From assembly GCA_041745875.1 (NCBI GenBank), contig JBGTIB010000306.1:298-64297 (forward strand): a stretch of DNA of 64,000 nucleotides, in the 5' to 3' direction. Positions 24,184-61,117 of this stretch are shown piece by piece (within the stretch, counting starts at the first letter, position 1; each line of letters opens with the position of its first letter). The stretch comes from Flavobacteriales bacterium (lineage in GTDB: Bacteria > Bacteroidota > Bacteroidia > Flavobacteriales_F > PHOS-HE28). The notes under the pieces were generated by a model that worked only from the letters and a program-made list of their open reading frames with translations, was not told the origin of the DNA and ran no database searches. A program made the translations under genes and the position numbers.

Positions 24184-24212
24184 GGAAACATTCCGCTCAT
24201 GTAAATGTTTCC
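24184..24212. promoter_or_regulatory. candidate TetR operator (inverted repeat)
   Basis: ggaaacat-N13-atgtttcc, 38-66 nt upstream of the proposed TetR start. Confidence 0.3.
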
Positions 24213-26557: not shown

Positions 26558-26598
26558 TATTCCAGAAGCCTTTACCACCATACAACTTTGCCAACCTC

Positions 26599-28452: not shown

Positions 28453-28481
28453 TCTTTTTTCCCGCCTATCTTGGCGGGGCC

Positions 28482-29123
28482 ATGTCCAATGTTCCAATTC
28501 GTGTCGCTGTGGTTGAGGATGATCGTGAGATCAGGGGTCTCCTACGCGGCATACTTGAGCGGGCCGAAGGGTTGCAAGTGGTTGGCACCTTCCCCGATGC
28601 GGAGGATTATTTGTCCGATCTGGAACGTATCGCGGCCGATGTGGTGCTGATGGACATCGGTTTACCGGGTATCAACGGGATCGAATGCGTTCGGCAGGCC
28701 AAGCCCATGAGACCCGCCACACAATACCTGATGAGCACGGTGTTCGAAAGTCCCGCGTACATACACCAGGCCTTGTGCGCCGGCGCCACGGGATATCTGG
28801 TGAAGAACGCCGAGCCCGAGGAGATCATCGCGGCCGTGCGCGACATTCACGCAGGTGGCTCACCCATGTCGCCGCCGATCGCGCGTCTGGTGGTGGCTTC
28901 CTTCCAACAGCAGGTGCAGCAAAGCATACAGGACCATTTGCTCACCGAGCGGGAACGGTCCGTGCTGGACCAACTGGCCAACGGGCTCATGTACAAGGAG
29001 ATCGCGGCCAAGGCGGGCATCAGCACGGAGACGGTGCGCAAGCACGTACGCAACATCTACGAGAAGTTGCAGGTGGGCTCGCGCATGGAGGCGGTTCGCA
29101 AGGCGTACCCGAACGGGCGGTGA
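28482..29123 (+). CDS. response regulator, NarL/LuxR family
   Basis: REC (RVAVVEDD...VVLMDIGLPGINGIE) + LuxR HTH (LTERERSVLDQLANGLMYKEIAAKAGISTETVRKHVRNIYEKL). Confidence 0.9.
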   Translation: MSNVPIRVAVVEDDREIRGLLRGILERAEGLQVVGTFPDAEDYLSDLERIAADVVLMDIGLPGINGIECVRQAKPMRPATQYLMSTVFESPAYIHQALCAGATGYLVKNAEPEEIIAAVRDIHAGGSPMSPPIARLVVASFQQQVQQSIQDHLLTERERSVLDQLANGLMYKEIAAKAGISTETVRKHVRNIYEKLQVGSRMEAVRKAYPNGR

Positions 29124-29153
29124 CACACGGCGCATACCACTAAGGTGTTATTG

Positions 29154-40002: not shown

Positions 40003-40088
40003 GTTTCATCTACTACTCACGTGGTATTGATGGTGCTCTACCGCACCCAGTACTTCGTCAACGCATTCACCGCGCAACCGCGATAAAG

Positions 40089-43550: not shown

Positions 43551-43844
43551 TCGACATCCGGACCGAACGGGCATCGAAGGTGGATCCTCCTCCTCCGGTG
43601 CCCGTTCATCATTTACACACCGTGCGACCGCAGCACTCCTTCTGTTCCATGGGCTGGGTTGAATTCCGGTACTCATGGATGGGGTCACCCCCCAGCCAGC
43701 TGTACCACCTATGTAGTATTTCAGAAACCCTATCATCATTGGATCTTCGTTGCACTGAACAGCGACCATGCCGCTGAGCAATGAAGATGACGCCTTCTCA
43801 TCAATATGACACACAAGCGTCCTCCATCTCGGAGGAACAGGGCA

Positions 43845-43890
43845 TGTCGGGTTCTTACTTGAACCCGTCCTGGCAGCTGTATTTGCTTCG
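43845..43890 (+). promoter_or_regulatory. conserved bipartite motif copy 1 (TGTCGGGTTyTTACTTG-N20/21-TTGCTTCG)
   Basis: One of five copies; ends 7 nt before the ATG at 43898. Confidence 0.55.
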
Positions 43891-43897
43891 TCGATCC

Positions 43898-45628
43898 ATG
43901 TCGCGGTCCATCCTATTCATTGCGTTCATTGTTGTCTCTCTTCACGTGGAAGCCCAGAGCGTGGGCATCAGCGCGGATGGGGCAGCACCACACGCATCGG
44001 CCCTGCTCGATGTGAACGTGGCCGCATTGGCGGCGAACAACAAGAAGGGCCTGCTTGTGCCGCGCATGAATACCAGCGAACGGGAAGCCATCGCTGATCC
44101 CGCCCAAGGATTGTTGGTATTCGACATCACGCTGAACGAATTCTGGTTCCACGATGGGACCGCCTGGATGGCTGTAGCGGCAACGAGCACGATCTGGTCC
44201 GTTACCGGGAACGCAGGCACCGGGGCCACCGACTTCATCGGCACGAACGCCGGTAGTACAACGCTCGAATTCCGTGCGAACAACGAGCGTGTCGGCTACA
44301 CGGCAGACGGGGTGTCCCGGGTCTCCTTCGGTCATCTGGCCATGCCTCTTGCGACAGGTGTGAACAATACTGCCTTTGGTAAGAACGCTTTACAGAACCT
44401 TGGCACGGGAACGAACAACACGGCGATAGGAACCAATGCATTGAACGCCTTGACCACAGGTGTGTCGAACACCGCCGTGGGCTATCATGCCTTGCGATAT
44501 GCGACCGGATCGCGGAACACCGCGCTGGGCTACAATGCGATGGAGCAGAATACCACCGGTTCGGACAACACGGCGATCGGGCTGAGCGCGTCCCGTTACA
44601 ATCTCATTGGCAGCCGGAACACCGCCGTGGGCAGTGGAGCGCTGGAGAACAACACCAGTTCGGACAATACCGCCGTAGGCTACCAGGCATTGCAAAGCAA
44701 CACCACGGGCGAGTCGAACTCGGCGATGGGCTCGCGGTGCATGGCGAACCAGACAGTGGGGTCGCGGAACACAGCGATGGGCTATCTGGCCATGGAGCTG
44801 AATGTGAGCGGTATTCGCAACTGCGCCATCGGAGCGAGTGCGAGCCGGAACAATCTCACCGGTTCCTACAATGTGGCTTTCGGAAAGGACGCACTACGAT
44901 CGAATCTCAGCTCCTACAATACCGCAAGCGGCATGACCAGTGCCTTCAGTGTCACCACCGGCAGCTACAATACGGCCCTCGGCTATTTCACGTTGATCGC
45001 GGTGACCACAGGCAATTACAATACGGGGATCGGGCCGTTCGCAGGACCCGAGGGGAACTACACCAACACCACGGCCATCGGCAATGCCGCGACGCCAACC
45101 GCCAACAACCGCATCACCATCGGCAGCGTGGCCAACAACAACCTCACCGGTGGCCACGGTACCTGGCAGAATTTCTCCGATGCGCGCTTCAAGAAGAATG
45201 TTCGTTCCGATGTGCCCGGGCTGGACCTCATTCTGCGCCTTCGCCCGGTCACCTACCTCCTTGATGCCGAAGCGATCGAGAAGCGCACGGGTTCCTGGCA
45301 GCGCATGGATACAATGACCACCGGTGACCTTCGGGCCACGTACATGCAAAGGCTCGCCGAGGTTACAAGCGATCGCCAGACCGGATTCATCGCGCAGGAA
45401 GTGGAGGCGGCCGTCGAAGCCATCGGCTATCCGTTCGATGGGGTACATCACCCTGCGGATGACGCCGATCACTATACGCTCGGCTACGAGCAGTTCACCC
45501 TGCCTTTGATCAATGCGGTGAAGGAGCAACAAATGCAGATCGAAGAAATGGAGGCCTTGAACGCCAGGCTACACCAGCGTGTGCAGGAGCTTATCGAGTT
45601 ACGCGCCGAACGAACAGCGAAGCCATGA
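43898..45628 (+). CDS. tail-fibre-domain protein (S74 C-terminal chaperone domain)
   Basis: Signal peptide MSRSILFIAFIVVSLHVEAQ; N-terminal module GISADGAAPHASALLDV...GLLVPRMNTSEREAI..PAQGLLVFD...FWFHDGTAW; NTA.G..AL..NT.G repeats; SDARFKKNV...LRPVTYLLD. Confidence 0.85.
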   Translation: MSRSILFIAFIVVSLHVEAQSVGISADGAAPHASALLDVNVAALAANNKKGLLVPRMNTSEREAIADPAQGLLVFDITLNEFWFHDGTAWMAVAATSTIWSVTGNAGTGATDFIGTNAGSTTLEFRANNERVGYTADGVSRVSFGHLAMPLATGVNNTAFGKNALQNLGTGTNNTAIGTNALNALTTGVSNTAVGYHALRYATGSRNTALGYNAMEQNTTGSDNTAIGLSASRYNLIGSRNTAVGSGALENNTSSDNTAVGYQALQSNTTGESNSAMGSRCMANQTVGSRNTAMGYLAMELNVSGIRNCAIGASASRNNLTGSYNVAFGKDALRSNLSSYNTASGMTSAFSVTTGSYNTALGYFTLIAVTTGNYNTGIGPFAGPEGNYTNTTAIGNAATPTANNRITIGSVANNNLTGGHGTWQNFSDARFKKNVRSDVPGLDLILRLRPVTYLLDAEAIEKRTGSWQRMDTMTTGDLRATYMQRLAEVTSDRQTGFIAQEVEAAVEAIGYPFDGVHHPADDADHYTLGYEQFTLPLINAVKEQQMQIEEMEALNARLHQRVQELIELRAERTAKP

Positions 45629-47373
45629 TGCGCACCTGTTCAGCACTACCGACGCGCTTCGTGCTCGCACTGTTATGGTGCGTGCCGTTCGGCATGAGCG
45701 CTCAAAATGTCGGCATCAGCTTGGATGGGGCCGTCCCGCATGCAAGTGCCCTGCTCGACGTGGATGTGAGCGGATCGCCCGCCAATGGCAAACGCGGTAT
45801 GCTGATACCACGCATGACCACGGCCGAACGCGTGGCCATGCCCGCACCGGCTACCAGCACGCTGGTCTATGACACCACCGCGAACGGCTTCTGGTACTTC
45901 AACGGTATGGCATGGGTCCCCTGGGCACTGGTGGACAATGGATGGCGTACGACCGGCAATGCGGGGCTCACACAAGGGACGCATTTCATCGGCACGACGG
46001 ATGATGCCAACGTACGATTGCGGGTGAACAATGTGCAGGCGGGCCACCTCGCCGATGGCATTACCAGTTTCGGAGCCAATGCGGGCGCCACCACGGGAAC
46101 GGACCACACGGCCTTCGGCTACCAAGCGGCAGCGGGTTTGGATGCATTGAACGAGGTACGGAACACAGCGGTGGGATACCGTGCTGCGCTGAGCGTGACC
46201 GGTACGGCGAATAACACTGTGATAGGCAGCGAAGCTTTGTTGGCGGCAAGCGTGCTGTCATTTGTCAACACGGTGATCGGCCATCGGGCGCTGGCCTCTA
46301 CGGAATATGCCACAGCATGTGTAGCGGTAGGTCACCGTGCATCGGAACTCGCTATCAATATCAGTTCTTCCGCAGTGGTAGGGGCCCAGGCCGGGGCCAA
46401 TGGTACGGTCGATGGGAGCGTAGCCGTCGGCTATCAAGCAGGAATGGCAGGGCTCGACTATGGTCACGCGGTTTTCGGTAGCCGAGCTGCTGGCGCCAGG
46501 GCTTTCGGTGCGAACGCTTCACTTGCGCTCAATACGAATGTCGTAGCGAATGCCTTCGGTTACAGCGCGCTCGCCAGCACCACTACCGGGGACAGGAATG
46601 TCGCGGTAGGGTATACCGCCCTAGTAGCCAACACCACCGGTTCGTACAACACGGCCATCGGCGCACGTGCCATGATAAGTTCCACAGGCAGTTTCAATTC
46701 GGCCACAGGTTACCTGGCGCTGGGTAACCTGATCAGTGGTACGAACAACACAGCGCTGGGTGCGCTCGCAGGTCCGACCAACACAGCGTTGAGCTTCACC
46801 AGTGCCATCGGGTACAACAGTGTGCCGACCGCCAACGGAAGGATGGTATTCGGTACCACCTTGAGCACCAACCTCACCGGAGGATATGGCGCCTGGCAGA
46901 ACCCATCCGATGCACGCTTCAAGCGCGATGTGCGTACCGATGTGCCGGGCATCGAGTTCATCAGGCTGCTCAGGCCGGTGACATACAACCTGGATGCACC
47001 GGCGATCGAGCATTTCACAGGCGCGGAAGCGCGACTGGCCAGCTTGGAGGACCCCGTTCCGTTACAAGAGCATCGACAAGGATGGCACGCGGTCGCCAAT
47101 GCACGGTGCACAGGTCTGCTTGCACAGGAAGTAGCAGCGGCATTGGACAGTTTGGGGGCTGAACTGGACATCGTTCACCGGCCTGCGAACGAACAAGATC
47201 ACTACACGCTTTCCTATGCGGCGCTTGTGGTACCGCTGGTGCGAACCGTACAACAGCAGCAGGAACGGATAGCAGCGCTGCGCACATCCAACCGCGCCTT
47301 GATCGAGCAGCTCGAAGCCCTTGAACGGCATGAGGTGGAGACGCACTGGTCAGCACAGCGCAGGGAACAGTAG
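45625..47373 (+). CDS. tail-fibre-domain protein (S74 C-terminal chaperone domain)
   Basis: ATGA overlap with the upstream gene; same N-terminal module (GISLDGAVPHASALLDV...GMLIPRMTTAERVAM); SDARFKRDV...LRPVTYNLD. Confidence 0.85.
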   Translation: MMRTCSALPTRFVLALLWCVPFGMSAQNVGISLDGAVPHASALLDVDVSGSPANGKRGMLIPRMTTAERVAMPAPATSTLVYDTTANGFWYFNGMAWVPWALVDNGWRTTGNAGLTQGTHFIGTTDDANVRLRVNNVQAGHLADGITSFGANAGATTGTDHTAFGYQAAAGLDALNEVRNTAVGYRAALSVTGTANNTVIGSEALLAASVLSFVNTVIGHRALASTEYATACVAVGHRASELAINISSSAVVGAQAGANGTVDGSVAVGYQAGMAGLDYGHAVFGSRAAGARAFGANASLALNTNVVANAFGYSALASTTTGDRNVAVGYTALVANTTGSYNTAIGARAMISSTGSFNSATGYLALGNLISGTNNTALGALAGPTNTALSFTSAIGYNSVPTANGRMVFGTTLSTNLTGGYGAWQNPSDARFKRDVRTDVPGIEFIRLLRPVTYNLDAPAIEHFTGAEARLASLEDPVPLQEHRQGWHAVANARCTGLLAQEVAAALDSLGAELDIVHRPANEQDHYTLSYAALVVPLVRTVQQQQERIAALRTSNRALIEQLEALERHEVETHWSAQRREQ

Positions 47374-47374
47374 C

Positions 47375-49153
47375 ATGCAACGTAAGACCTTCAACCTGGT
47401 ATTGGCGATCGGCGTAAGCTGCTTGACCGGCGTTACGACCAATGCGCAGGTCGGCATCAACACCAATGGGGGCGCACCCGCTGCCTCCGCCATGCTCGAT
47501 GTGGATGCAAGCGCGTTGCCCGCCAATGGGAAGCGGGGCTTGCTACTGCCGCGGATGACCGCCGGAGAGCGTGAAGCGATCCCAGCTCCGGCAACCGGAC
47601 TTCTCGTGTATGAGACGACCACCAATGCCTATTGGTACTTCAATGGAACGCTCTGGATGCAATTATTCGGATCGTACACGGACTGGCAGTTCCCAGGCAA
47701 CACGGGCATCGTGCCGGGCACGCATTTCCTGGGCACCAACACTGCCGTACCGCTGGAATTCCGGCGCAACAATATGCGCAGCGCCTGGGTCTCGTCCGCA
47801 GGAACGAATACCGCATGGGGTTACCTGGCGCTGGCAGTGAACTCAGGCACGAACAATACGGCGCTCGGATCCAGGGCGCTGGCTGCCAGCACGACCGGTT
47901 CGAGGAACACGGCCGTGGGTTCGAATGCCCTGGCCAACAGTGGTAGCTCGAACAGTGTGGCTGTTGGCGCGAACGCCCTACGTGTTGGAACATCCGTGAT
48001 CGCCCAGACCGCAGTAGGGGCCCGCGCCATGGAGAACTATACAAGCGGTGCGGGCAATACGGCCGTTGGGTCGAACGCACTCTTGGTGGCAACCCCCACG
48101 AATTGCACTGCGGTTGGGCAGATCGCACTGCAATATTCGACGGGTGCGAACAACACAGTATTCGGCAATCAAACGATGATCGCCAATACGAATGGCTCGG
48201 GGAATACCGCGTTCGGATCTTTGGCCTTATCCAGCCTTGCGTCCGGCTCCAACAATACGCTCATAGGCCGTATGAATTATTTCACTTCTGGTAGCGACAA
48301 CACCAGCGTCGGGGCCTTTTACTATTTGACAAGTGGTACCGGGAATTGTGGTATTGGAGGGGGTGGGGGAGACAATACCGGCAACTACAACACGCTAATG
48401 GGTTCCGGGTCACACCTGGACAATGATGATGGCGCTTACGGTACGGCGTTGGGTGCAGGAACGCTGGGGTATATGCCGAACACCCCCTCATCAACGGACT
48501 TTTGCACGGCCGCAGGTTATGTTGCCTTTACCGGCATCACGGCAAACAATATGACGGCCATCGGATACAACGCCATGGCACCTGGCGGTAACGTGATCCG
48601 CTTCGGTAACGCGGCCAACAACACCGGCCTTATTGGCGGCTTCGGGGCGTGGCAGAACCTTAGCGATGCGCGATACAAGAAGAACGTGCGAGAGAACGTG
48701 CCTGGACTGGACTTCATCCTCCGGCTGCGCCCGGTCACCTATCGCTTTGATGTGAACGCTTACGACACGTTCACTGGTCTCGCCGATCACATGACCCCCG
48801 AACGGAGTTCTGAAGAGCTTGCCACTTACACTACCCACGCAAATGCCTCGTCTGACATCCGCCGCATCGGCTTCATCGCACAGGAAGTGGAAAGCGCCGC
48901 CGAATCACTGGGCTTCGAGTTCTCCGGGGTGCATCGACCCATGGACGACAAGGACCACTACACCATCGGCTACGAACAGTTCGTGGTGCCCCTGGTGAAA
49001 GCGGTACAGGAGCAGCAGGAGCAGCTTGACACCATGCTCGTTGAGTTGAACGCAGCGATGCTCCGTGTGGAACTACTAAGCGCCGACATACGCGAGGGCG
49101 TTACACTTCCCGCAATGCCGCCGCGCACTTCGGCAAACTCCCAACGGCCATGA
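47375..49153 (+). CDS. tail-fibre-domain protein (S74 C-terminal chaperone domain)
   Basis: Start at MQRKTFNLVLAIGVSCLTGVTTNAQ, 1 nt after the previous stop; same N-terminal module; SDARYKKNV...LRPVTYRFD. Confidence 0.85.
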   Translation: MQRKTFNLVLAIGVSCLTGVTTNAQVGINTNGGAPAASAMLDVDASALPANGKRGLLLPRMTAGEREAIPAPATGLLVYETTTNAYWYFNGTLWMQLFGSYTDWQFPGNTGIVPGTHFLGTNTAVPLEFRRNNMRSAWVSSAGTNTAWGYLALAVNSGTNNTALGSRALAASTTGSRNTAVGSNALANSGSSNSVAVGANALRVGTSVIAQTAVGARAMENYTSGAGNTAVGSNALLVATPTNCTAVGQIALQYSTGANNTVFGNQTMIANTNGSGNTAFGSLALSSLASGSNNTLIGRMNYFTSGSDNTSVGAFYYLTSGTGNCGIGGGGGDNTGNYNTLMGSGSHLDNDDGAYGTALGAGTLGYMPNTPSSTDFCTAAGYVAFTGITANNMTAIGYNAMAPGGNVIRFGNAANNTGLIGGFGAWQNLSDARYKKNVRENVPGLDFILRLRPVTYRFDVNAYDTFTGLADHMTPERSSEELATYTTHANASSDIRRIGFIAQEVESAAESLGFEFSGVHRPMDDKDHYTIGYEQFVVPLVKAVQEQQEQLDTMLVELNAAMLRVELLSADIREGVTLPAMPPRTSANSQRP

Positions 49154-50670
49154 AATTCCCGGGACTACTCTCTGCCTTGTTATGTGCTCCGGCAGCATTC
49201 GGGCAACTGTGTTCGGCAGAGGGTGTTGTGATCTCCATTGCCACAGGTACCGTGCTCACCGTGGAAGGTGACATCCTGCTGAACACCAGCGCCACCTGTG
49301 CCAATCAGGGCGAGTTGCGCGTGGCCGGCGATTGGACCAATGCCAGCGGTGGTTCCGTGATGACCGCCGCCAGTGCCGGTGTGGTCCACTTGTACGATGG
49401 CCCCCAAACGATCGATGGTACTTCCGTCACCGACTTCCGCAACCTGCGCATCAGTGGCGGGGACAAAACCCTTGAACAGGATGCAGTGGTCGGTCTGCCT
49501 GGTTCAGCCACTGGAACACTGGACCTCGATGGGGCCACGCTGCTGCTGAACGGACGCACGTTCTCCGTGTTCAATGCCGCCGCGACCGCTGTGGTCGACA
49601 ATGGGGGCAGCGTACGCAGCGAGAGCGTCGATCTGGCAAGCCGCTTCCAGTGGGCACTTGGCGCGGATGTGGGCGAGCATCGCATCCCTTTCAGCACGGC
49701 GGCGGGTACTGCTTTGCCATTCGCCTTTACGCCAGTAGCGCCCTACGCCGCCAACACTTTGTTGAGCGTTGCCACCTATCCCACAGCACCGGACAACACA
49801 CCCTACGCGGTGACCCCGAACCAGCAGGTGTTGCACATCATGGGCTTCGAGGTGGTGGACAACAGCCCCAATACCGTGGACCGTTTCTGGCTGGTGGACC
49901 TGCCCAACGGAAACTTCACTGGCGAGTTGCTCCTGAGCTACACGCCGCCGGAGGATGCGACCATGGGCCCCGGCCCTGTGCGCGCCCAGCGCTGGCTTGA
50001 GAGTGCAGGTACCTGGCAACCGCCACTGCCCGGGCAAAGCAACCCCGGCTTGCGCGAAGCCTTGGTACCAGCAGTGCTGTTCAGCGAAAGCGTGAACCCC
50101 GTGAATGAGCACATCTGGGCAATGGCCTACGCCAATTTGCCCCTGCCTATTGAACTGATCGCCTTCGACGCCATCGCCGTGGACAACGCCCATGTCCATT
50201 GCCTGTGGACCACCGCCAGCGAACGTGACAACGACCACTTTACCGTGGAGCGCAGCCGCGATGCGGTGCTGTTCGAGGAGGTGGGACAGGTACCAGGTGC
50301 CGGTCATTCCAATACCCCCTTGCATTACACCTTCAACGACATGAGGCCCTATCCGGGCGTGAGCTACTACCGCCTGCGCCAGACGGACTTCGATGGTACC
50401 GCGACGTGGTCACAGGCAGTCCCCGTTCACTTTACGACAACAGTTGGCGTAAGCGTGTACCCCAACCCGAACAATGGCGCGTTCACCATACATCGGCAGC
50501 AGGCGGACCTTCCGCTGTCCTTGCAACTGACCGACGGCCTGGGCAGGCTTGTACACAGTTGGAACATGCCCCAGGGAGTGGACCGGCAGTCCGTACAGTT
50601 CGACCTGGCCAGCGGTGCTTACACCCTCCGTTGGGACAACGAGCAACTGAAGCTGGTCATCAGCCGGTGA
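49150..50670 (+). CDS. T9SS C-terminal-sorting-domain protein
   Basis: ATGA overlap with the upstream fibre gene; signal peptide; LPIELIAFDA...VERSRDAVLFEEVG...SYYRLRQTDFDG module; CTD VSVYPNPNNGAFTI. Confidence 0.8.
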   Translation: MKFPGLLSALLCAPAAFGQLCSAEGVVISIATGTVLTVEGDILLNTSATCANQGELRVAGDWTNASGGSVMTAASAGVVHLYDGPQTIDGTSVTDFRNLRISGGDKTLEQDAVVGLPGSATGTLDLDGATLLLNGRTFSVFNAAATAVVDNGGSVRSESVDLASRFQWALGADVGEHRIPFSTAAGTALPFAFTPVAPYAANTLLSVATYPTAPDNTPYAVTPNQQVLHIMGFEVVDNSPNTVDRFWLVDLPNGNFTGELLLSYTPPEDATMGPGPVRAQRWLESAGTWQPPLPGQSNPGLREALVPAVLFSESVNPVNEHIWAMAYANLPLPIELIAFDAIAVDNAHVHCLWTTASERDNDHFTVERSRDAVLFEEVGQVPGAGHSNTPLHYTFNDMRPYPGVSYYRLRQTDFDGTATWSQAVPVHFTTTVGVSVYPNPNNGAFTIHRQQADLPLSLQLTDGLGRLVHSWNMPQGVDRQSVQFDLASGAYTLRWDNEQLKLVISR

Positions 50671-50725
50671 GGAGCTGTTGACCCCGCCGCCTTCTCAAGG
50701 ACCCGCACGCCAGTGCGCCACTTCA

Positions 50726-50770
50726 TGTCGGGTTTTTACTTGCCGAACGCCCTCGCATCTTCTTGCTTCG
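50726..50770 (+). promoter_or_regulatory. conserved bipartite motif copy 2
   Basis: tgtcgggtttttacttg-N20-ttgcttcg, 44 nt upstream of the AraC ATG. Confidence 0.55.
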
Positions 50771-50814
50771 GAGATCTCTTCAGACCCCCGCCTAACCCGA
50801 ACGTGGTATTTCAA

Positions 50815-51738
50815 ATGCCGCCGCAGCCCCCAACCTTCGGTGTACCGAACGGTAGCCCCATGGATGCCTGGTCCGAAGCGATGCCCAAATCCGAAAGCCA
50901 ACTTCAAGCGCCACCCCTGTTCGCCGACTACGGTGAGTACATCCCCGTTGCGAACGATCCCTTGTTCGGCGTGGTGCAGCGTATGGCGCATATGCATTTC
51001 CTGGCTCCGCTGCCACCGGAGCAGCTGGCACCGGACAGCTACATCAAGTTGGCATTGATCCTGGATGGTGAGCCACACTACTTCGATGGCCAAGGCGAAC
51101 CCCTGGACTGGCACGATGGCTTTGCCGGTCATGTCCCCCCTCGCAAAGGCATTGTGACAAAAAGTGATGGACCTGTCCGCTGCCTGATGGCAAACTTCTA
51201 TCCGAGTGCCTTCTTCCAACTGTTCGGAGGCCCGGTAGATCGGTTCAATGGTCTCATGATACCACCCGAACAACTGCTGGGCGATGGTGCTGCGACGCTC
51301 TATGCGGGAGTGCGCGCCACCCATGACCCACGGATAGCACTCGATGTGGTGAAGTGTTTCCTGCGCGAACTGATCACAGAACAGGCACCCGCGCAACCGT
51401 CACCCATCGCGCGACTCGAACATTACATCCGCGAACGCAAAGGCATGGTGCTGGTGAACGAGCTCGCCGAGCTGGCAGGTCTTTCCGAACGCCAGCTTCA
51501 GCGCCGCTTCAAGGAGGAGGTGGGTCTTTCGCCCAAAGCCTTCTGTTCGGTGGTGCGCTTCAACCACGTGTACAGCGAAATGAAACGCACTGGAAAACTG
51601 GACCTTGATGTAGCCCTGGCCTGTGGCTACTTCGATGAGAGCCACATGATGAAGGATCTCTCCTACTTTCTGGGTAAGGCGCCAAAACGTTTCGTATCGC
51701 TCATTCGCCCCATGGTGGACCTGAACCTGGGGCACTGA
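50815..51738 (+). CDS. AraC/XylS family transcriptional regulator (copy A)
   Basis: C-terminal dual HTH (VNELAELAGLSERQLQRRFKEEVGLSPKAFCSVVRFNHVY...ACGYFDESHMMKDLSYFLGKAP). Start set at MPPQPP because the paralog's upstream extension is in a different frame. Confidence 0.8.
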   Translation: MPPQPPTFGVPNGSPMDAWSEAMPKSESQLQAPPLFADYGEYIPVANDPLFGVVQRMAHMHFLAPLPPEQLAPDSYIKLALILDGEPHYFDGQGEPLDWHDGFAGHVPPRKGIVTKSDGPVRCLMANFYPSAFFQLFGGPVDRFNGLMIPPEQLLGDGAATLYAGVRATHDPRIALDVVKCFLRELITEQAPAQPSPIARLEHYIRERKGMVLVNELAELAGLSERQLQRRFKEEVGLSPKAFCSVVRFNHVYSEMKRTGKLDLDVALACGYFDESHMMKDLSYFLGKAPKRFVSLIRPMVDLNLGH

Positions 51739-51759
51739 TAACAAATGCTTCATACGCCG

Positions 51760-51804
51760 TGTCGGGTTCTTACTTGAACGGGGCGGTCGCCTGCTATTGC
51801 TTCG
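51760..51804 (+). promoter_or_regulatory. conserved bipartite motif copy 3
   Basis: tgtcgggttcttacttg-N20-ttgcttcg, begins 21 nt after the AraC stop and ends 105 nt upstream of the 51910 ATG. Confidence 0.55.
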
Positions 51805-51909
51805 AGGTCCGAACCGATAAGACCGTCATACCACACGCATATCACTGAGCACGCGGCACCATAATTCAAATTCCCCTTGTAGCAAGGTCATTGATCCGCG
51901 TTGCACTCC

Positions 51910-54831
51910 ATGAAGCGCTTCCTTCTCCTTCCATTGTTGATGGTCCTTTCATTCGGGGGATACACCCAAGGAGTAGGGATCAACAACCCCACCCCGGATC
52001 CTTCCGCCTTGCTTGACGTGAACAGCACAACCAAGGGCGTGCTCCTTTCACGGATGACCTCTGTGCAACGCGTGGCCATTCCTGCACCTGCCACTGGACT
52101 ACTTGTGTTCGATAGCACACTGAACGAGTTCTGGTACTTCGACGGCACCGCATGGGTGCCTTTACTATCGGCCACGAAAGGATGGGCCTTGAACGGCAAT
52201 GCCGGAACGGTTGATGGCACGCACTTCCTGGGCACTACGGATAACATTCCCCTGAGCTTTCGGGTGAATGGGGTGCAAGCCGGTCGCATTGACCACTTGA
52301 TATCAAATAGCTACTACGGCTTTAATGCCGGAGCAGGAACTACGACAGGGTACGGCAATACCGCGAACGGGCAAGCCGCATTACAAAGCAACACGACCGG
52401 ATATCGGAACGTTGCCATCGGCAACTATGCGCTCAGTGCCAACACGACGGGTTTCTGGAACACTGCGACCGGAGTGAGTGCTTTGGCATCCAATACAACA
52501 GGTAGGGACAATGTAGCCTATGGTGGTGGTGGCCTCTTCAACAATACGAACGGCAACTTCAACACCGCCGTTGGAGGGGTGGCCCTTCGTCAAAACACGG
52601 AAGGTTCCAGCAACACGGCGATCGGCCTCAGCGCACTCTACAACAATGTCGCAGGGTCCAAGGCTACCGCCATTGGAGAATTCGCCATGTTCAATTCCAA
52701 CAATACGACCACCGCTTTCATCAATCAGAATGTGGCCATCGGAGCTTACGCATTATATGGGTCGACCACCATAGCTAATAATACCGGAAACAACAATACG
52801 GCCGTTGGGTATGAGACCCTTCGGAACAATTCCTCCGGCAGGGGAAATACGGCTATGGGTACCGTAGCATTACGTGCGAACACCATCGGCAATTGGAATA
52901 CCGCGGTGGGCGATAGCGCGTTGTTCGCCAACACTTCCGGGATCAACAACACTGCCAATGGGGCGTTCGCGCTCAGGACCAATTCAACAGGCGCCCAGAA
53001 CACAGCGGTCGGAAGGGATGCTTTGCTTGTCAATACGACTGGTTCTTTGAACGAAGCCTTTGGGTACCGTGCCCTCTACAGCAACACCACCGGCAATAGG
53101 AACGCGGCAATGGGAGACAGTGCCTTGTTCTACAATACGACCGGATCCGACAACGCGGCTTTCGGTTCCAAGACGTTGCTTTCCAACACCACAGGCCGGT
53201 TCAACACAGCCAGTGGTAGGGAAGCAATGAGGTCCAACACTACCGGCAGCTCCAATGCAGCTCTTGGCTACCGGGCCATGTACAGCAATACCAGCGGCTC
53301 AGATAACGTGGCCGTGGGAGATAGCGCCCTCCTCGCCAACACGATCGCAAGCTACAATACCGCCATTGGCAAACATGCATTGCGGTCGAACTCTGCAAAC
53401 TACAACACCGGGGTGGGCTACCAGGCTTTGTTCGCGAACACCTTCGGTTATATGAATAGTGCTTTCGGAGGCCAGGCGCTGCGGAACAACATTTCCGGGG
53501 TCTTCAATACGGCAGTGGGTTACAGCTCTCTGAACCAGAACACCCTGGGCGGTGATAACACGGCGATCGGATACTCCAGCATGGGTCAGAATACAACTGG
53601 AAACCGGAACGCCGCGACCGGTTATTGGGCTTTGACCAAGAACACCACCGGTGCATACAACACGGCCACTGGAGCGGAGGCCATGCGGGAAAATACTTCC
53701 GGAGAGGACAACGTCGCTCAGGGTTACCAGGCCTTATGGTCCAATAGCACGGGAAGCAATAACACCGCAGCCGGTAGACGCGCATTGGCAACTAATCGCA
53801 CCGGATCTTCGGCGACCGCTATAGGTTACGGTGCGATGGAGAACAGTAATTCCAGTACGACACCATTCACCAATTACAGCGTGGCTATTGGTTTCGAGGC
53901 CCTGAGGGGGTCGGCTTTAGCAGCCTCCAATACGGGCAACTATAATTCCGCTGTTGGCTATCAGGCCCTGTATTCCAATTCCATGGGCTACGACAACGTG
54001 GCCATGGGAGTGGAGGCCATGTATGCCAATACCACCGGAAATCGAAATAGTGCCATTGGCCGAAGTGCGCTGTACAGCAATACCACTGGCTACGGTAATA
54101 GCGCCATGGGATTTGCTGCACTCACTTTCAACACGACGGGATATGGGAATACCGCTTCAGGTCGCGGGGCATTGTACGCGAACACGACGGGCGTTTCCAA
54201 TACGGCCGTTGGGCTTACTGCACTCTACACCAACACCACGGGCAATTACAACACCGCGATCGGCAACGCGGTGGATGTGGACGCCACCAACCGGGAGAAT
54301 ACGGTGACCATTGGTGGCACCGGCAATCTGGCACTGGGCGGAAGCAACCGCGTGCGTATCGGCAACAATGCCATGACCTCCATCGGTGGCCAGGTAGGTT
54401 TCGCTGCGATCTCTGACGAACGCACCAAGACCAATGTGTTGGAGAATGTTCCGGGGCTTGCGTTCATTACACGCCTCAAGCCGGTCACATACAAATTCAG
54501 TATCGCACAAAGCAATGCGGTGCAGGGGAAAATGGATACGGTCAGTTGGGCGGGTAAGTATGACATCGAGCAGATCCGTTTCACCGGCTTCCTTGCGCAG
54601 CAGGTGGAGCAAGCTGCCATGGACTCAGGGTACGACTTCAGTGGTGTGGACAAACCAGAGGACGGGCAAGGGCTTTGGGGCTTACGCTACGGGGAGTTCA
54701 CAGTACCCCTGGTAAAAGCGGTACAGGAAATGAACGACACCGTGCAGACGCAACAGATCCTGATCGTGCAATTGCAGGAAGAGTTGAAGGCCCTGCGCCA
54801 AGAACTGCAACAACTCCAGAACGGCCGGTGA
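51910..54831 (+). CDS. tail-fibre-domain protein with long 17-residue repeat shaft and S74 C-terminal chaperone domain
   Basis: Signal peptide MKRFLLLPLLMVLSFGGYTQ; N-terminal module GINNPTPDPSALLDV..GVLLSRMTSVQRVAIPAPATGLLVFD...FWYFDGTAW; dozens of NTA.G..AL..NTTG.. units; SDERTKTNV...LKPVTYKFS...VPLVKAVQE. Confidence 0.85.
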   Translation: MKRFLLLPLLMVLSFGGYTQGVGINNPTPDPSALLDVNSTTKGVLLSRMTSVQRVAIPAPATGLLVFDSTLNEFWYFDGTAWVPLLSATKGWALNGNAGTVDGTHFLGTTDNIPLSFRVNGVQAGRIDHLISNSYYGFNAGAGTTTGYGNTANGQAALQSNTTGYRNVAIGNYALSANTTGFWNTATGVSALASNTTGRDNVAYGGGGLFNNTNGNFNTAVGGVALRQNTEGSSNTAIGLSALYNNVAGSKATAIGEFAMFNSNNTTTAFINQNVAIGAYALYGSTTIANNTGNNNTAVGYETLRNNSSGRGNTAMGTVALRANTIGNWNTAVGDSALFANTSGINNTANGAFALRTNSTGAQNTAVGRDALLVNTTGSLNEAFGYRALYSNTTGNRNAAMGDSALFYNTTGSDNAAFGSKTLLSNTTGRFNTASGREAMRSNTTGSSNAALGYRAMYSNTSGSDNVAVGDSALLANTIASYNTAIGKHALRSNSANYNTGVGYQALFANTFGYMNSAFGGQALRNNISGVFNTAVGYSSLNQNTLGGDNTAIGYSSMGQNTTGNRNAATGYWALTKNTTGAYNTATGAEAMRENTSGEDNVAQGYQALWSNSTGSNNTAAGRRALATNRTGSSATAIGYGAMENSNSSTTPFTNYSVAIGFEALRGSALAASNTGNYNSAVGYQALYSNSMGYDNVAMGVEAMYANTTGNRNSAIGRSALYSNTTGYGNSAMGFAALTFNTTGYGNTASGRGALYANTTGVSNTAVGLTALYTNTTGNYNTAIGNAVDVDATNRENTVTIGGTGNLALGGSNRVRIGNNAMTSIGGQVGFAAISDERTKTNVLENVPGLAFITRLKPVTYKFSIAQSNAVQGKMDTVSWAGKYDIEQIRFTGFLAQQVEQAAMDSGYDFSGVDKPEDGQGLWGLRYGEFTVPLVKAVQEMNDTVQTQQILIVQLQEELKALRQELQQLQNGR

Positions 54832-55031
54832 GGTGGTTCACCAGCATGGCCTTCGGTGTATACAGGCAATAGGTCGACGGTCGATCGTGAACCATATATT
54901 GCTGAATTGCCCCGATCTGGAAATGATCTTATTGCGTAGATCCGCCATCCATGGCCTACTTCCTACGTGGCATTTTGAGCCTCGCGGACCGACCCGATCT
55001 TCGCCATTTAGTGCGCAGCGTTGAATGACCA

Positions 55032-55076
55032 TGTCGGGTTTTTACTTGCGCCATGTTCTCGCATTTTCTTGGTTCG
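55032..55076 (+). promoter_or_regulatory. conserved bipartite motif copy 4
   Basis: tgtcgggtttttacttg-N20-ttggttcg, 43 nt upstream of the AraC ATG. Confidence 0.5.
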
Positions 55077-55119
55077 AAGATCTCTTCGACCTGCGCCTAA
55101 CCCGAACGTGGTATTTCAA

Positions 55120-56043
55120 ATGCCGCCGCACCTCCCAACCTTCGGTGTTCCGAACGGCAGCCCCAAGGATGCCCGTCCCGAAGCGATGTCCGAGACCGAT
55201 CACGAACTTCAAGCGCCCCCGATCTTCGCCGACTACGGTGAGTATATCCCCACTGCGAACGAGCCCTTGTTCGGCATCGTGCAGCGCATGGCACAAATGC
55301 ACTTCCTGGCGCCGCTGCCACCCGAGCAATTGGCACCGGACAGCTACATCAAGCTGGCATTGATCCCGGAAGGGGAGCCACACTACTTCGATGGCCAGGG
55401 CGAACCCATGGATTGGCACGATGGGGTCGCAGGCCATGTACCGCCACGCAAAGGCATTGTTGCTACGAGCAATGGACCAGTACGCTGCCTGATGGTCAAC
55501 TTCTATCCAAGCGCATTCCACCGGCTTTTCGGTGGTCCGGTGGATCGGTTCAATGGGAGGATGGTACCACCAGAACAGGTGCTGGGCACTGCTGCAGCCA
55601 CGCTCTATGAGAATGTTCGCGCGACGATCCATGCACAGTCGACGATCGATGTCGTTAAGAATTTCCTGATCGACCTGGTCGCCAGGAAGGCCCCCGCTCC
55701 ACCATCATCCATTGCGCGTCTGGAGCATTACATCCGCGAACGAAAGGGCAAGGTGCTGGTGAATGAGCTCTCTGAACTTGCCGGACTTTCCGAGCGCCAA
55801 CTCCAGCGGCGCTTCAAGGAGGAGATCGGCCTTTCGCCCAAAGCCTTCTGTTCGGTGGTGCGCTTCAACCACGTGTACAGCGAAATGAAACGCATTGGAA
55901 AATTGGACCTGGACGTGGCCATTTCCTGTGGCTATTTTGACGAGAGCCACATGATGAAGGATCTCTCCTACTTTCTGGGTAAGGCACCAAAACGTTTCGT
56001 ATCGCTGATCCGCCCCATGGTGGACCTGAACCTGGGGCATTGA
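55120..56043 (+). CDS. AraC/XylS family transcriptional regulator (copy B, close paralog of 50815)
   Basis: Collinear and highly similar to copy A from MPP(Q/H)(P/L)PTFGVPNGSP to the identical C-terminus FVSLIRPMVDLNLGH. Confidence 0.8.
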   Translation: MPPHLPTFGVPNGSPKDARPEAMSETDHELQAPPIFADYGEYIPTANEPLFGIVQRMAQMHFLAPLPPEQLAPDSYIKLALIPEGEPHYFDGQGEPMDWHDGVAGHVPPRKGIVATSNGPVRCLMVNFYPSAFHRLFGGPVDRFNGRMVPPEQVLGTAAATLYENVRATIHAQSTIDVVKNFLIDLVARKAPAPPSSIARLEHYIRERKGKVLVNELSELAGLSERQLQRRFKEEIGLSPKAFCSVVRFNHVYSEMKRIGKLDLDVAISCGYFDESHMMKDLSYFLGKAPKRFVSLIRPMVDLNLGH

Positions 56044-56064
56044 TAACAAATGCTTCACACGCCA

Positions 56065-56110
56065 TGTCGGGTTCTTACTTGGACCAACCGCGCCGTCATT
56101 GTTGCTTGCG
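56065..56110 (+). promoter_or_regulatory. conserved bipartite motif copy 5
   Basis: tgtcgggttcttacttg-N20-ttgcttgcg, begins 21 nt after the AraC stop and lies upstream of the FGE-like array. Confidence 0.5.
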
Positions 56111-56296
56111 CCAGCCAGGCACGTTACTACCAACGTGGTATTGTATCCGGCATCCTCGTGTAGTCCTTTTGAAAGGTGGTCCTTCAACACGGAGATGACC
56201 GTTCACCATTCAACGAATATCAACACCAGCAGCGGATCGCATCAATAACACGATGGCCCGGCGGGCGCGCGCATATGCTCCACCACACACTACACC

Positions 56297-57859
56297 ATGC
56301 AAATGGAGACCCACGCACTCACACTCCTGTTCGCAGGCACGCTGGCGACCGCCCTCCACGCCAACAACATCCAGGTCACCAACACCACCCTCGTTGACAA
56401 TACCGGCAGCACCGTGAAGGTGCAGTTCGATGTGACCTGGGAGAACAGCTGGCGGGGTGAGGGGGTGAACAACTGGGATGCAGCATGGGTGTTCGTGAAG
56501 TACAAGCTTTTTGGCGATGACGCTTGCGACCATGTGGACCTTCAGCACACCGGTCATGTGGCCCCGAGCGGTTGCTTGATCGACAATGGCCTGCTCGCAC
56601 CGGGCGCGGCGTATGATGCGGCAAGCAACCCAGTGGTGGGTGTGTTCATCCGCCGCGATGTGGAGGGCACCGGCACGTTCGTGGCCACTGGCGTGCAATT
56701 GCTCTGGGACTATTCCACCCTGGGCGTATTCTTTGGTGACATCAGCGAAGTGCGCGTGTATGCCATTGAGATGGTGTACATCAATGAAGGTGCGTTCCAC
56801 CTGGGCAGTGGCGGTACGGAAACGAGCGCCTTCAAGACGGGCAATACCACACAACCCTACCACATCACTTCGGAGGATCCCATTCAGGTCTCTTTGAACC
56901 AGCAAGCACTCTGGGCGACCGGGGACATCGTGACCGGACCCCTTGCCGCCAACTTCCCCAAGGGCTTTGCGGCCAGCTACATGATGAAGTACGAGATCAG
57001 CCAGCAGCAGTATGTGGACTTCTTGAACAGCCTGACGCGCCAACAGCAGGACACACGGACCGGAACGGACCTGTCCATGGGCATCTCGGCCGTCACAGAT
57101 ACCTACGTAATGAGCGCCACGTCCTCCATTATTGCGCGCAACGCCATTCGATGCGATTCCAACATCGATCCCAACGGGACGATCACATTCTATTGCGATG
57201 CCAATGGGAACGGTACAGGTGGCGAAGCGGATGACGGCCTCTGGGTGGCGTGCGGCTTCCTGCATGGTGGCGACATGGCGGCCTACCTGGATTGGAGCGG
57301 CCTAAGGCCCATGACCGAACTGGAATTCGAGAAGGCTTGCCGGGGCGCGCTTCCGCCCTTGGTGAACGAGTTCCCATGGCGCAGTGCGAGCATATGCCTT
57401 CAAGCCTATGCGCTCGCCAGCAGTGGTGCCGCCGATGAAGCCATCTCATCGAACTACAGTACAACGGTGGGCAATGCGAACTATTCAAGCACCGGCTTGC
57501 TTGCTCCGGCGCGTGTGGGCATCTACGCCGCGCATCCCTCCAATGCCGGTCGTACCACGGCGGGGGCTGGCTATTACGGAACCATGGAGCTCGCCGGGAA
57601 CCTGTGGGAGTTCGCCGTTTCTCTCGCCACTACAGCAGGGCAGGCCTTTCCCGGCACCCATGGCGACGGGCGCCTTTCTGTGACCGGGCAGGGGGATCAA
57701 GCAGCATGGCCGACCCAGGCGTCCGGCTACGGCACAAGAGGTGGCACCTTCTCGTCCAATTCGGAGAACCTGCGCGTCTCCGACCGCGAGTTCGCCGGAG
57801 CTATCGTCCCGGTAAGAGCGAATAACCTAGGCGGCCGTGGAGTCCGCACAGCACCGTGA
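56297..57859 (+). CDS. secreted FGE-sulfatase (SUMF1/EgtB/PvdO-like, C-type-lectin fold) domain protein, paralog 1
   Basis: Signal peptide ..ATALHA/NNIQV; YMMKYEISQQQYVDFLNSL; DWSGLRPMTELEFEKACRG; EFPW; YYGTMELAGNLWEF; RGGTF; terminal GGRGVRTAP. Confidence 0.75.
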   Translation: MQMETHALTLLFAGTLATALHANNIQVTNTTLVDNTGSTVKVQFDVTWENSWRGEGVNNWDAAWVFVKYKLFGDDACDHVDLQHTGHVAPSGCLIDNGLLAPGAAYDAASNPVVGVFIRRDVEGTGTFVATGVQLLWDYSTLGVFFGDISEVRVYAIEMVYINEGAFHLGSGGTETSAFKTGNTTQPYHITSEDPIQVSLNQQALWATGDIVTGPLAANFPKGFAASYMMKYEISQQQYVDFLNSLTRQQQDTRTGTDLSMGISAVTDTYVMSATSSIIARNAIRCDSNIDPNGTITFYCDANGNGTGGEADDGLWVACGFLHGGDMAAYLDWSGLRPMTELEFEKACRGALPPLVNEFPWRSASICLQAYALASSGAADEAISSNYSTTVGNANYSSTGLLAPARVGIYAAHPSNAGRTTAGAGYYGTMELAGNLWEFAVSLATTAGQAFPGTHGDGRLSVTGQGDQAAWPTQASGYGTRGGTFSSNSENLRVSDREFAGAIVPVRANNLGGRGVRTAP

Positions 57860-57901
57860 ACCATGCTGCTCCACCAGAACCACACGAACACTACTGTACC
57901 A

Positions 57902-59401
57902 ATGCGATCGATCACTTTCCTCCCCCTCCTTTTGCTGCTGGCAGGCACCACCCTCCACGCCAACAACATCCAGGTCACCAACACCACCTTGGTGGACAAC
58001 ACCGGAAGCACCGTAAAGGTGCAATTCGATATCAGTTGGGAGAACAGCTGGCGCGGCGGCGGTGTGGCCAACTGGGATGCCGCATGGGTCTTTGTGAAGT
58101 ACCAACTGAGCAATGGTGCCTGGGGACATGCGCGCTTGGGCAATACCGGGCACACTGTGCCAACGGGCAGTTTGATGGAGATGGGCCTGCTCACCCCGGG
58201 CAGCTCATATGACGCCACCACGAACCCGGTGATCGGCACCTTTCTGCGGCGCGATGCCGATGGCACCGGCACCTTCAGCGCTTCCGGCGTGCAACTGTTC
58301 TGGGACCATGCGGCGCAGGGGATCCTCGCCAGCAACGATCTCACAGCGGTCCAAGTTTTCGCGGTGGAGATGGTGTACGTGAACGAAGGGCCGTTCATGC
58401 TCGGTGGCCCAGGCCTTTTGGAGCACAACAAGTTCCAGACAGCTATGAGCCAAGCTCCTTTTCAAGTTACTTCTGAAGCACCATTGGTGATCTCCTCTAC
58501 CGGGTTTTGGGCAATGGGGCATATCGTTGCTGGCACGTTGGGCGCCGCATTCCCAAAAGGCTATGCGGCGAGCTATGTGATGAAGTATGAGATCAGCCAG
58601 AAACAACTTGTGGACTTCCTGAATACGCTCCTCCGTGTCCAGCAAGATCTCTGTGTCTTGAACATGGAAGCCGAATGGGTACTGAATGGACAGAACACGA
58701 ACGATCCCATCTACCGTCAGGGTGTGGGAGCAAGTGGAGCGAACAACATAGGAGCGCCAGTCCACTTCCACACCTATTTCCCATTTGTTGCCAGCAATTA
58801 TCTGGATCGATCCCTGCTATACCGATACTTGGACTGGTCAGGATTGCGGCCCATGAGTGAAATGGAGTACGAGAAGGCATGCCGTGGGCCATTACCACCC
58901 ACCGGCAACGAGTATGCATGGGGCACTGAAGTCCTGGCGATCACAGCGAATGCCTATACATTGACCGATCCCGGATATGCAGGGGAGTCCATACTCACTG
59001 GTTTTGATAACTCCGGGAACGCGAATTTCACCGCTGCAGGAGGTGATGCATTCATTGTTGGCCCTTTCCGTGTCGGCATATTCGCCGCCCATCCCAACAA
59101 TAATGGACGCGCGGGTTCGGGTGCGAGCTATTATGGCATAATGGAACTCACGGGTAACGTGGGGGAACAGGTGGTGGGTGTGTCAACACTGACAGGGCAG
59201 AGTTACACGGGTATCCATGGCAACGGCACGTTGGACACGTGGGGTCTTGCCGACGTGCCTGGCTGGCCGATCGACCTCATGGTCAGGGGCGGATCGTTCT
59301 TCAGTGGATCGTTCCAGGGCTATGTTTCCTATCGGCAAGCCAGCAGTACTTCTGGTGGAGGTCCACCAAACGGTGGCCGCGGGGTGCGCACCGCACCTTG
59401 A
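57902..59401 (+). CDS. secreted FGE-sulfatase-domain protein, paralog 2
   Basis: MRSITFLPLLLLLAGTTLHA/NNIQV; YVMKYEISQKQLVDFLNTL; DWSGLRPMSEMEYEKACRG; EYAWG; YYGIMELTGNVGEQ; RGGSF; GGRGVRTAP. Confidence 0.75.
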   Translation: MRSITFLPLLLLLAGTTLHANNIQVTNTTLVDNTGSTVKVQFDISWENSWRGGGVANWDAAWVFVKYQLSNGAWGHARLGNTGHTVPTGSLMEMGLLTPGSSYDATTNPVIGTFLRRDADGTGTFSASGVQLFWDHAAQGILASNDLTAVQVFAVEMVYVNEGPFMLGGPGLLEHNKFQTAMSQAPFQVTSEAPLVISSTGFWAMGHIVAGTLGAAFPKGYAASYVMKYEISQKQLVDFLNTLLRVQQDLCVLNMEAEWVLNGQNTNDPIYRQGVGASGANNIGAPVHFHTYFPFVASNYLDRSLLYRYLDWSGLRPMSEMEYEKACRGPLPPTGNEYAWGTEVLAITANAYTLTDPGYAGESILTGFDNSGNANFTAAGGDAFIVGPFRVGIFAAHPNNNGRAGSGASYYGIMELTGNVGEQVVGVSTLTGQSYTGIHGNGTLDTWGLADVPGWPIDLMVRGGSFFSGSFQGYVSYRQASSTSGGGPPNGGRGVRTAP

Positions 59402-59436
59402 TCACTTCCCTTAATACGATCTCAGACCCTACACCC

Positions 59437-60981: not shown

Positions 60982-61117
60982 CCGGGGTTTTCAAGCCCTA
61001 ACACAGGGGTATGGGGCCTAGCCCCATAGAAGATTAAGAAGACCAGTTAGCACCGAGATCACCACTCTGGCAACTGATCGCACCGGAACAGCAGCCCAGC
61101 AACACAAGAATAGACCG

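Follow-up and report, generated by a model that had tools for sequence, protein, structure and literature searches.

In this study, we analysed a window of 64,000 nucleotides from a Flavobacteriales bacterium (GenBank assembly GCA_041745875.1, contig JBGTIB010000306.1), which contains an island of genes for fibre proteins, AraC-family regulators and FGE-like proteins. A bipartite motif found upstream of these genes, which we named M1, consists of a 17-mer (box 1), a spacer and an 8-mer (box 2). Based on its sequence and its occurrence in related lineages, it is likely that each copy of M1 is a composite activator-dependent promoter, in which a predicted site for the neighbouring AraC-family regulator (hereafter AraC) is fused to a Bacteroidota-style promoter.

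Box 1 (TGTCGGGTTYTTACTTG) matched the window five times, each time without a mismatch and on the plus strand, at start positions 43845, 50726, 51760, 55032 and 56065 (chance expectation at up to two mismatches, 0.01 in dinucleotide-preserving shuffles). When the whole window was scanned at up to five mismatches, nothing appeared at one to three, and the next-best sites had four or five. The lack of intermediate matches implies that M1 is sharply bounded in the window, and these scans bear out a preliminary description, made from the sequence alone, that had noticed five plus-strand copies and none elsewhere. Box 2 follows box 1 after 20 nt (21 nt in copy 1) and reads TTGCTTCG in copies 1, 2 and 3, TTGGTTCG in copy 4 and TTGCTTGC in copy 5, while the five spacers are unrelated in sequence.

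Copy 1 (43845-43890, with box 1 at 43845-43861 and box 2 at 43883-43890) precedes a fibre operon whose ATG (43898) lies 7 nt past box 2, as had been described; it is an orphan in that no AraC gene is located directly upstream. Copy 2 (50726-50770), which has a T at position 10, lies upstream of the gene for AraC A and is followed after about 50 nt by a degenerate promoter of a second motif, M2 (see below). Copy 3 (51760-51804) is found 22 nt past the stop codon of AraC A and before a fibre gene of 973 aa. Copy 4 (55032-55076), also with a T at position 10, lies upstream of the gene for AraC B and has an M2-like site on either side (54957 and 55098), and copy 5 (56065-56109) is found 22 nt past the AraC B stop codon, before an FGE-like gene array and with an M2 promoter at 56125 after it. 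The coordinates first proposed are correct for copies 1 to 4 and for the start of copy 5, which ends at 56109 rather than 56110. All five copies are intergenic with respect to real genes and precede a gene of the same orientation, as had been claimed, although mechanical open reading frames (ORFs) cross copies 1, 2 and 4.

The association between M1 and AraC was examined in related loci taken from representative genomes, assemblies and metagenomes (labelled L0xx or L1xx). AraC relatives with 45-81% identity were compared in 16 other Flavobacteriales lineages, and box 1 was found 8-103 nt past the AraC stop codon in 15 of them, either exact or with one to four changes. This holds even at 45% AraC identity, where the most distant copy (L087) reads TGACGATTATTTACTTG-N20-TTGGTTCG. 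AraC was the only regulator that consistently adjoined box 1. The sole exception was L062/L082, in which AraC is directly followed by an asnS remnant and the cargo is missing together with the box. In most of the longer loci, a common frame was observed in which a TetR-RND efflux operon is followed by AraC, a variable cargo and asnS. The cargo genes encode secreted proteins. L061, L063 and L064 carry the gene for a 1,300-1,400-aa FG-GAP protein with a type IX secretion system (T9SS) sorting domain, and three S74 fibre genes occupy this place in L071. In L067 and L084 the cargo is homologous to the first fibre gene of the window, and L083 has an FGE-like protein. The L080 cargo is probably an FGE-like protein as well, judging from its start region, which matches that of L083. 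The M1-M2-FGE-like order of copy 5 is also present in L080 and L083.

We also searched a collection of 185,579 representative genomes, which does not contain the source genome of the window. Two scans of this collection revealed true M1 copies only beside AraC paralogues. A scan for the exact 17-mer gave 60 single matches spread across all phyla, which is about the number expected by chance, and only the match in Flavobacteriales JTS-RE173 was real. A scan of viral contigs for the bipartite motif returned one low-G+C chance match and hence no sign of a phage origin. A literature search on AraC regulators of T9SS cargo in flavobacteria found nothing relevant.

To define the anatomy of M1, 20 non-identical copies were aligned on box 1, and the spacing was checked on 21 unique copies. 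The consensus is CA-TGTCG-nn-TTyTTACTTG-(aa), followed by 20-21 unconserved bases and TTnnTTCG, and nothing is conserved after box 2. The spacer carries approximately 0 bits, in agreement with the earlier statement that it is not conserved, while the distance between the boxes is 20-21 nt in all 21 copies. Box 1 is asymmetric and has no dyad symmetry. Its two near-invariant blocks, TGTCG (positions 1-5) and TTyTTACTTG (positions 8-17), are separated by the free positions 6-7 and lie about one helical turn apart, as in a 17-20 bp asymmetric protein-binding site that abuts or overlaps an upstream promoter element at a set distance.

The downstream part of M1 resembles in its geometry a promoter for the Bacteroidota primary sigma factor. 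In Flavobacterium psychrophilum the -7 box of this factor, TAnnTTTG, spans -12 to -5 (PMC9723704), and a -33 TTTG element has been described for Bacteroidota (PMC7366714, PMC2483708). An invariant TTG closes box 1 at 20-21 nt before box 2, corresponding to the -33 TTTG/TTG element, and box 2 is constrained at positions 1, 2 and 5-8, which is the 2+nn+4 pattern of TAnnTTTG; TTnnTTCG agrees with this consensus at four of the six specified positions. The canonical TAnnTTTG occurs only once in the 59% G+C window, both strands counted, and the pattern TTG-N18-21-TAnnTTTG has zero matches there, so the -7 form was calibrated on the housekeeping boxes of the genome itself. We found TAGTTTCG 4 nt before the ATG of a YjgF-like gene at 16165 (plus strand; region 16153-16167) and TACTTTCG 4 nt before the ATG of a housekeeping gene at 10127 on the minus strand (region 10125-10139). 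In three related lineages, asnS has a conserved TTCCTTTG in front of it, and a fourth lineage has CATCTTTG there. From these examples, near-leaderless mRNAs and a -7 box with TTCG seem normal for this G+C-rich Flavobacteriales lineage. In every copy of M1, box 2 carries TT where the housekeeping boxes carry TA, which fits a promoter that is weak without help.

The boxes had previously been regarded as a poor match to the Bacteroidetes -33 and -7 elements. This view was revised here because the geometry does fit, with a -33 TTG, a distance of 20-21 nt, a 2+nn+4 8-mer and housekeeping boxes of the form TAnnTTCG. Box 2 is thus better read as a putative -7 element than as a second operator. The preliminary description had further considered either direct recognition by AraC or an alternative sigma factor; the former gained comparative support from the 15 of 16 lineages and the fixed spacing, and the latter is not needed for a motif that fits the Bacteroidota promoter geometry.

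The two regulators of the window are paralogues with 82% identity, both on the plus strand. The longest ATG ORFs of AraC A and AraC B begin at 50815 and 55120, within the spacer of the degenerate M2 promoter in each case. The true starts are probably at M23, 66 nt further, giving genes at 50881-51738 and 55186-56043, because residue M16 of the long ORF is AAG in copy B and because the closest homologues have 285-286 aa, the M23 start giving 285 aa. Pfam matches of A and B were above the cut-offs for both HTH_18 (52.9 and 46.5 bits) and HTH_AraC (43.1 and 39.8 bits), and the PDB sequence matches are AraC-type DNA-binding domains. The defining domain of the AraC/XylS family, which is C-terminal, about 100 aa long and contains two helix-turn-helix motifs, is present in both copies. 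An AlphaFold model built from 22 family members (predicted local distance difference test score, pLDDT, 86.9) has a beta-rich N domain at residues 21-113 and combines a cupin-like (jelly-roll) N domain with an AraC DNA-binding domain. The top Foldseek matches of this model were ToxT, Rns and CsvR over about 270 columns (E 2e-7 to 1e-5, TM score 0.37-0.49, identity 8-12%), followed by isolated cupins. We regard the likeness of the modelled AraC to ToxT and Rns as a resemblance of fold and not as demonstrated common descent. The family is narrow: it comprises 36 proteins at E<=1e-20, and the members with a source name, as well as every fetched locus, belong to uncultured Flavobacteriales.

Considering these features together, we propose the following mechanism. 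The anatomy of M1, its conservation, its linkage to AraC and its promoter-like geometry are observed, while the start sites, the direction of regulation and the binding of AraC to box 1 are inferred. The 5' part of box 1 (CA-TGTCG-nn-TTyTTAC) would be an asymmetric site of approximately 17-19 bp for one AraC DNA-binding domain; no second direct repeat is visible upstream of box 1, and one domain per promoter is therefore the simplest arrangement. The final TTG of box 1 would serve as the -33 element for the Bacteroidota primary sigma factor, and TTnnTTCG as a sub-optimal -7 element with TT replacing the consensus TA. Such a promoter would be weak alone, and AraC bound beside or overlapping the -33 element would recruit RNA polymerase in the class II style. 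Transcription would start about 5 nt past box 2. A start at this distance predicts that no start codon should be closer, and indeed the cargo start codon is never less than 7 nt from box 2 in any lineage. For copy 1 the start would be near 43895, giving a near-leaderless mRNA of the fibre operon (ATG 43898), and the leaders of the other M1 units would be 100-180 nt long.

Read from the 64-kb window, the predicted regulon would join the two AraC genes, under positive feedback, to the FGE-like array and to the fibre genes, both those of the operon and the lone one. M1 precedes an AraC gene twice in the window and also in L061, L064 and L078, and not in at least seven other lineages, which implies that positive feedback is optional and lineage-specific. 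The autoregulated AraC regulon of fibres and FGE-like proteins that had been predicted is thus retained for the window, with putative autoregulation also in L061 and L064 and a possible cascade in L078, and does not extend to these seven or more lineages. A possible rule at position 10 of box 1, with T upstream and C downstream of AraC, failed because L071, L077 and L079 carry T downstream. A further arrangement was observed in the metagenome-assembled genome HK-STAS-BACT-58, which has two tandem AraC paralogues (L078 1-2700; L108, JACJZG010000004.1, around 41.9 kb) in the order AraC-M1-M2-AraC-(degenerate M1), and, at a distance of 14 kb from these, a third AraC that lacks cargo (L062). The arrangement suggests a regulator cascade.

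Several points weigh against the composite promoter proposed here. Only one AraC site is visible at M1, and many AraC proteins use two direct repeats. Box 2 agrees with TAnnTTTG at only four of six positions, and TTCG is replaced by TTGC in copy 5. The canonical -7 sequence is almost absent from the window, so the consensus for this lineage rests on few examples. In addition, copies 1 and 4 are located downstream of an M2 promoter, and a protein bound there could equally be a roadblock. This last point leads to the reading that box 1 is an operator for repression or roadblock, placed on or downstream of otherwise constitutive promoters and bound either by AraC or by another regulator such as the TetR of the efflux operon. 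At copies 1 and 4 an M2 site precedes the box by 125 and 58 nt, a TetR gene is present beside AraC in most relatives, and an overlap with the -33 element is compatible with occlusion too. However, the asymmetry of box 1 is unlike the palindromic operators of TetR-type proteins, and the box also trails AraC paralogues that have no TetR nearby (L078, L108 and the window's own copies). Box 2 departs from the -7 form of the lineage at TA in all copies, which is the signature of an activator-dependent promoter and not of a strong promoter under repression, and the structural relatives ToxT and Rns are activators. We therefore consider repression unlikely. A promoter for an alternative sigma factor, of the extracytoplasmic function (ECF) type or another, appears rather improbable as well. 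Such a factor would read box 1 as an extended -35 element and box 2 as its -10 element, with AraC co-located but not the recognising protein; the bipartite layout with a set spacer and the rarity of canonical TAnnTTTG in the window agree with this, as does the CG in box 2, since ECF -10 boxes in F. psychrophilum carry CGT (PMC9723704). On the other hand, 15-17 positions of box 1 are constrained, far beyond what region 4 of a sigma factor contacts, and it is AraC alone among regulators that always adjoins the box (15 of 16 lineages). Housekeeping genes of the same genome are preceded by TAnnTTCG, and the M2 promoters share the downstream 8-mer. The ECF form was rejected, because CGT is present in only 4 of 20 copies, an AAC-type -35 element is lacking, and neither the window nor the genes called or Pfam-scanned in related loci revealed a sigma or anti-sigma factor. 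A sigma-54 promoter (TGGCAC-N5-TTGCW, GG-N10-GC) was also discarded, as TGGCAG occurs in copy 1 only and lies 2 nt too far from TTGC.

The conservation of the box could instead result from recombination, if the box were a site or hot spot at which cargo is swapped behind AraC. Cargo does vary by lineage while AraC, TetR-RND and asnS stay, and the two AraC units of the window cease to be homologous precisely after the final base of box 1 in copies 3 and 5. Against this, only one site accompanies each cargo in relatives, with no further site towards asnS, the contigs of a given species agree in their cargo, and neither a conserved 8-mer at 20-21 nt nor a constant co-orientation would be needed for such a site. 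A recombinase was detected neither in the window nor among genes called or Pfam-scanned in related loci, and this absence, together with that of paired sites, led us to reject an integron-like site. Conservation by recombination in place of transcription is thus very unlikely. It is even harder to regard M1 as a transcribed RNA element, either a leader structure or a small RNA. Hairpins of 7 bp are possible in copy 1 (CGGGTTC...GAACCCG) and L063 (CGTGTTC...GAACACG), with one compensating change pair, but the inverted repeat is absent from most copies, RNAalifold found 0 consensus pairs in the 20 copies, and positions 23000-64000 gave 0 Rfam matches at E<=1. Furthermore, just 7 nt separate box 2 from the ATG in copy 1 and L067. 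With a hairpin that is not general, no Rfam match and no consensus pairing, this candidate was dropped.

For the second motif, M2 (TACYWC-N4-GTRKYATT), the window gave seven plus-strand matches and none on the minus strand, versus 0.17 expected. It forms an imperfect 16-bp palindrome whose half-sites start with TAC. The M2 sites are located at 24296-24313 (TACTACTTGTGTAGTATT, before the gene for TPR-HisKA_3 kinase 1), 26544-26561 (before the kinase 2 gene), 29135-29152 (before an operon encoding 584-aa, 2330-aa and 687-aa proteins), 40011-40028 (before a small gene with a T9SS C-terminal domain and a collagen/S74 fibre gene), 43703-43720 (125 nt upstream of M1 copy 1) and 56125-56142 (16 nt past box 2 of M1 copy 5), with an M2-like site at 54957-54974 (58 nt upstream of M1 copy 4); degenerate M2 sites at 50793-50810 and 55098-55115 precede the AraC genes. 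In all nine M2 sites, an 8-mer ending in TTCG or TTTG starts exactly 20 nt after the base that follows ATT. M1 and M2 are unrelated and yet share a 20-nt distance to an alike 8-mer, which implies that both are activator modules of one promoter type. M1 would therefore represent only half of the wiring of the island, with M2 marking nine putative promoters.

M2 was also detected in relatives (L063, L067, L071, L077-L080 and L083), where it precedes the AraC gene (L067, L077 and L078) and also cargo genes. As to the protein that may bind it, our guess is the NarL-type regulator encoded at 28449-29123. Sites of NarL-type regulators are 7-2-7 inverted repeats with the half-site TACYYMT. M2 is similar in being a palindrome with TAC half-sites, and the island has a NarL-family regulator and two HisKA_3 kinases; however, the half-site of M2 differs from TACYYMT, and some relatives carry M2 although a NarL-type regulator is not seen in their fetched loci. 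A strict M2 scan of genomes gave 44 matches, which were mostly due to chance or to unrelated low-G+C Bacteroidota. Three identical M2-like copies, TACTACATAGGTGGTATTTGG...GGGCTTTG, were noticed in the 2-Mb genome of Bergeyella cardium (NZ_CP114055.2; L120, L126 and L142), and they may be a repeated promoter, for example of rRNA operons.

Activation by an AraC protein placed over the upstream promoter element, with positive feedback, is a textbook mechanism and a conventional switch. In enteric bacteria and Vibrio, the AraC activators Rns/CfaD/CsvR and ToxT switch on fimbrial or pilus genes from asymmetric sites (Rns sites, toxboxes) beside the -35 element, and Rns is in addition an activator of itself. 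The modelled AraC is similar to ToxT, Rns and CsvR in combining a cupin-like N domain with a double helix-turn-helix domain. As with ToxT and Rns, its putative targets are surface fibres and adhesins, and M1 has a single asymmetric site against the upstream promoter element; as with Rns, some lineages have the site before the regulator's own gene. The two systems differ in that identity is only 8-12% at TM scores of 0.37-0.49, that the M1 promoter is of the Bacteroidota -33/-7 type and that the AraC gene is upstream of, and co-directional with, its target. In contrast to the A/T-rich and degenerate toxbox, the M1 site contains G+C and is far better conserved.

Sites of class II AraC/XylS activators overlap the -35 element, as do araI2 at pBAD, the proximal XylS site TGCA-N6-GGNTA at Pm and the class II marboxes. 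The blocks TGTCG and TTACTTG of M1 are likewise about 10 bp apart, overlap the upstream element and have a set orientation to the gene, although no second direct repeat is visible at M1 and the sigma factor and promoter consensus are different. Compared with the usual Bacteroidota primary-sigma promoter, M1 has the TTG 20-21 nt before an 8-mer conserved at positions 1, 2 and 5-8, but it also has TTnnTTCG, a spacer that is G+C-rich instead of A/T-rich and a conserved extension of 14 bases before the TTG. M1 would thus be a new example of an AraC-type site joined to the standard promoter of the host, and not a new kind of system.

To our knowledge, Bacteroidota have very few defined transcription-factor sites, and uncultured G+C-rich members of the Flavobacteriales, among them the wastewater and freshwater metagenome-assembled genomes considered here, have almost none. 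M1 offers a 17-19 bp site conserved across species, a named candidate binder and a predicted start site. Its target set comprises S74 fibre proteins, FG-GAP T9SS proteins and FGE-fold proteins, and it thereby shows how surface-fibre genes might be co-activated. M1 and M2 together provide a testable model for how activators dock at a -33/-7 promoter of the Bacteroidota primary sigma factor.

The organization of the window also gives some indication of its history. The two AraC units (50724-51776 and 55030-56081) are homologous from CATGTCGGG of copies 2 and 4 to the last box 1 base of copies 3 and 5, so that M1 bounds the duplicated unit on both sides and homology ends at the last base of TTACTTG. 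The surroundings of copy 1 (43551-43897) are collinear with L067 9795-10935, which has the order M2-AraC-M1-fibre gene, except that the AraC ORF is missing; M2 and M1 are 124 nt apart at copy 1, where L067 holds the AraC gene between them. It seems that an AraC gene has been lost from this position. Because of the duplicated unit, the orphan copy 1 resembling L067 and the order at copy 5 resembling L080 and L083, the window looks like a compound of three AraC-box-cargo modules that are found singly elsewhere.

The interval from TetR-RND to asnS is a hot spot. It holds AraC and 2-6 kb of cargo in relatives (L061, L064, L067 and L071) and at least 38 kb in the window (17158-24224 and 24422-64000), where asnS is not reached before the window ends. 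Alongside seven fibre-like, two AraC and four FGE-like genes, the interval in the window contains the kinases, the NarL regulator and the 2330-aa protein. One speculative and rather doubtful extension is that AraC and its box could form a portable expression socket at this hot spot, with fibre or adhesin genes captured by recombination at the last box 1 base. If this were true, the box would be both a promoter and a crossover point that diversifies the cell surface, and the window, with its five boxes and two AraC genes, a compound of three modules.

The gene calls of the preliminary description agreed with Pfam. Of the four genes in the fibre operon (43898-50670, plus strand), three encode Peptidase_S74 fibre proteins and the other a protein with a T9SS C-terminal sorting domain. 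The lone Peptidase_S74 fibre gene (51910-54831, plus strand) had been given as 976 aa; its most likely start is the ATG at 51910, which gives 973 aa. The FGE-like array (56297-62698, plus strand) encodes four paralogous FGE-sulfatase-fold proteins with signal-peptide-like N termini. Upstream in the window are the two TPR-HisKA_3 kinases, the NarL-type regulator, the 2330-aa protein and the collagen/S74 fibre gene, and farther upstream, on the opposite strand, is the TetR-RND efflux operon. The regulator at 28449-29123 (plus strand) is a NarL/FixJ-family response regulator with the Pfam domains Response_reg and GerE, and its NarL-like NCBIfam matches are under the curated cut-offs. Pfam and other domain scans of the window revealed no sigma factor or recombinase gene.

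Two minor observations were made in the same region. The sequence GTGGTATT is enriched 8-fold in the window, with 11 matches versus 1.4 expected, and is also frequent within the fibre genes of L067, L071 and L084. Its minus-strand matches at 42138, 44549, 54028 and 54079 lie inside fibre genes and were rejected as regulatory sites, as they instead reflect repetitive fibre coding sequence (NTA/NTT-type repeats). After the FGE-like array, a further long ORF with a signal-peptide-like start (62713-64000) runs off the window; neither M1 nor M2 precedes it, and it may belong to the transcription unit of the array.

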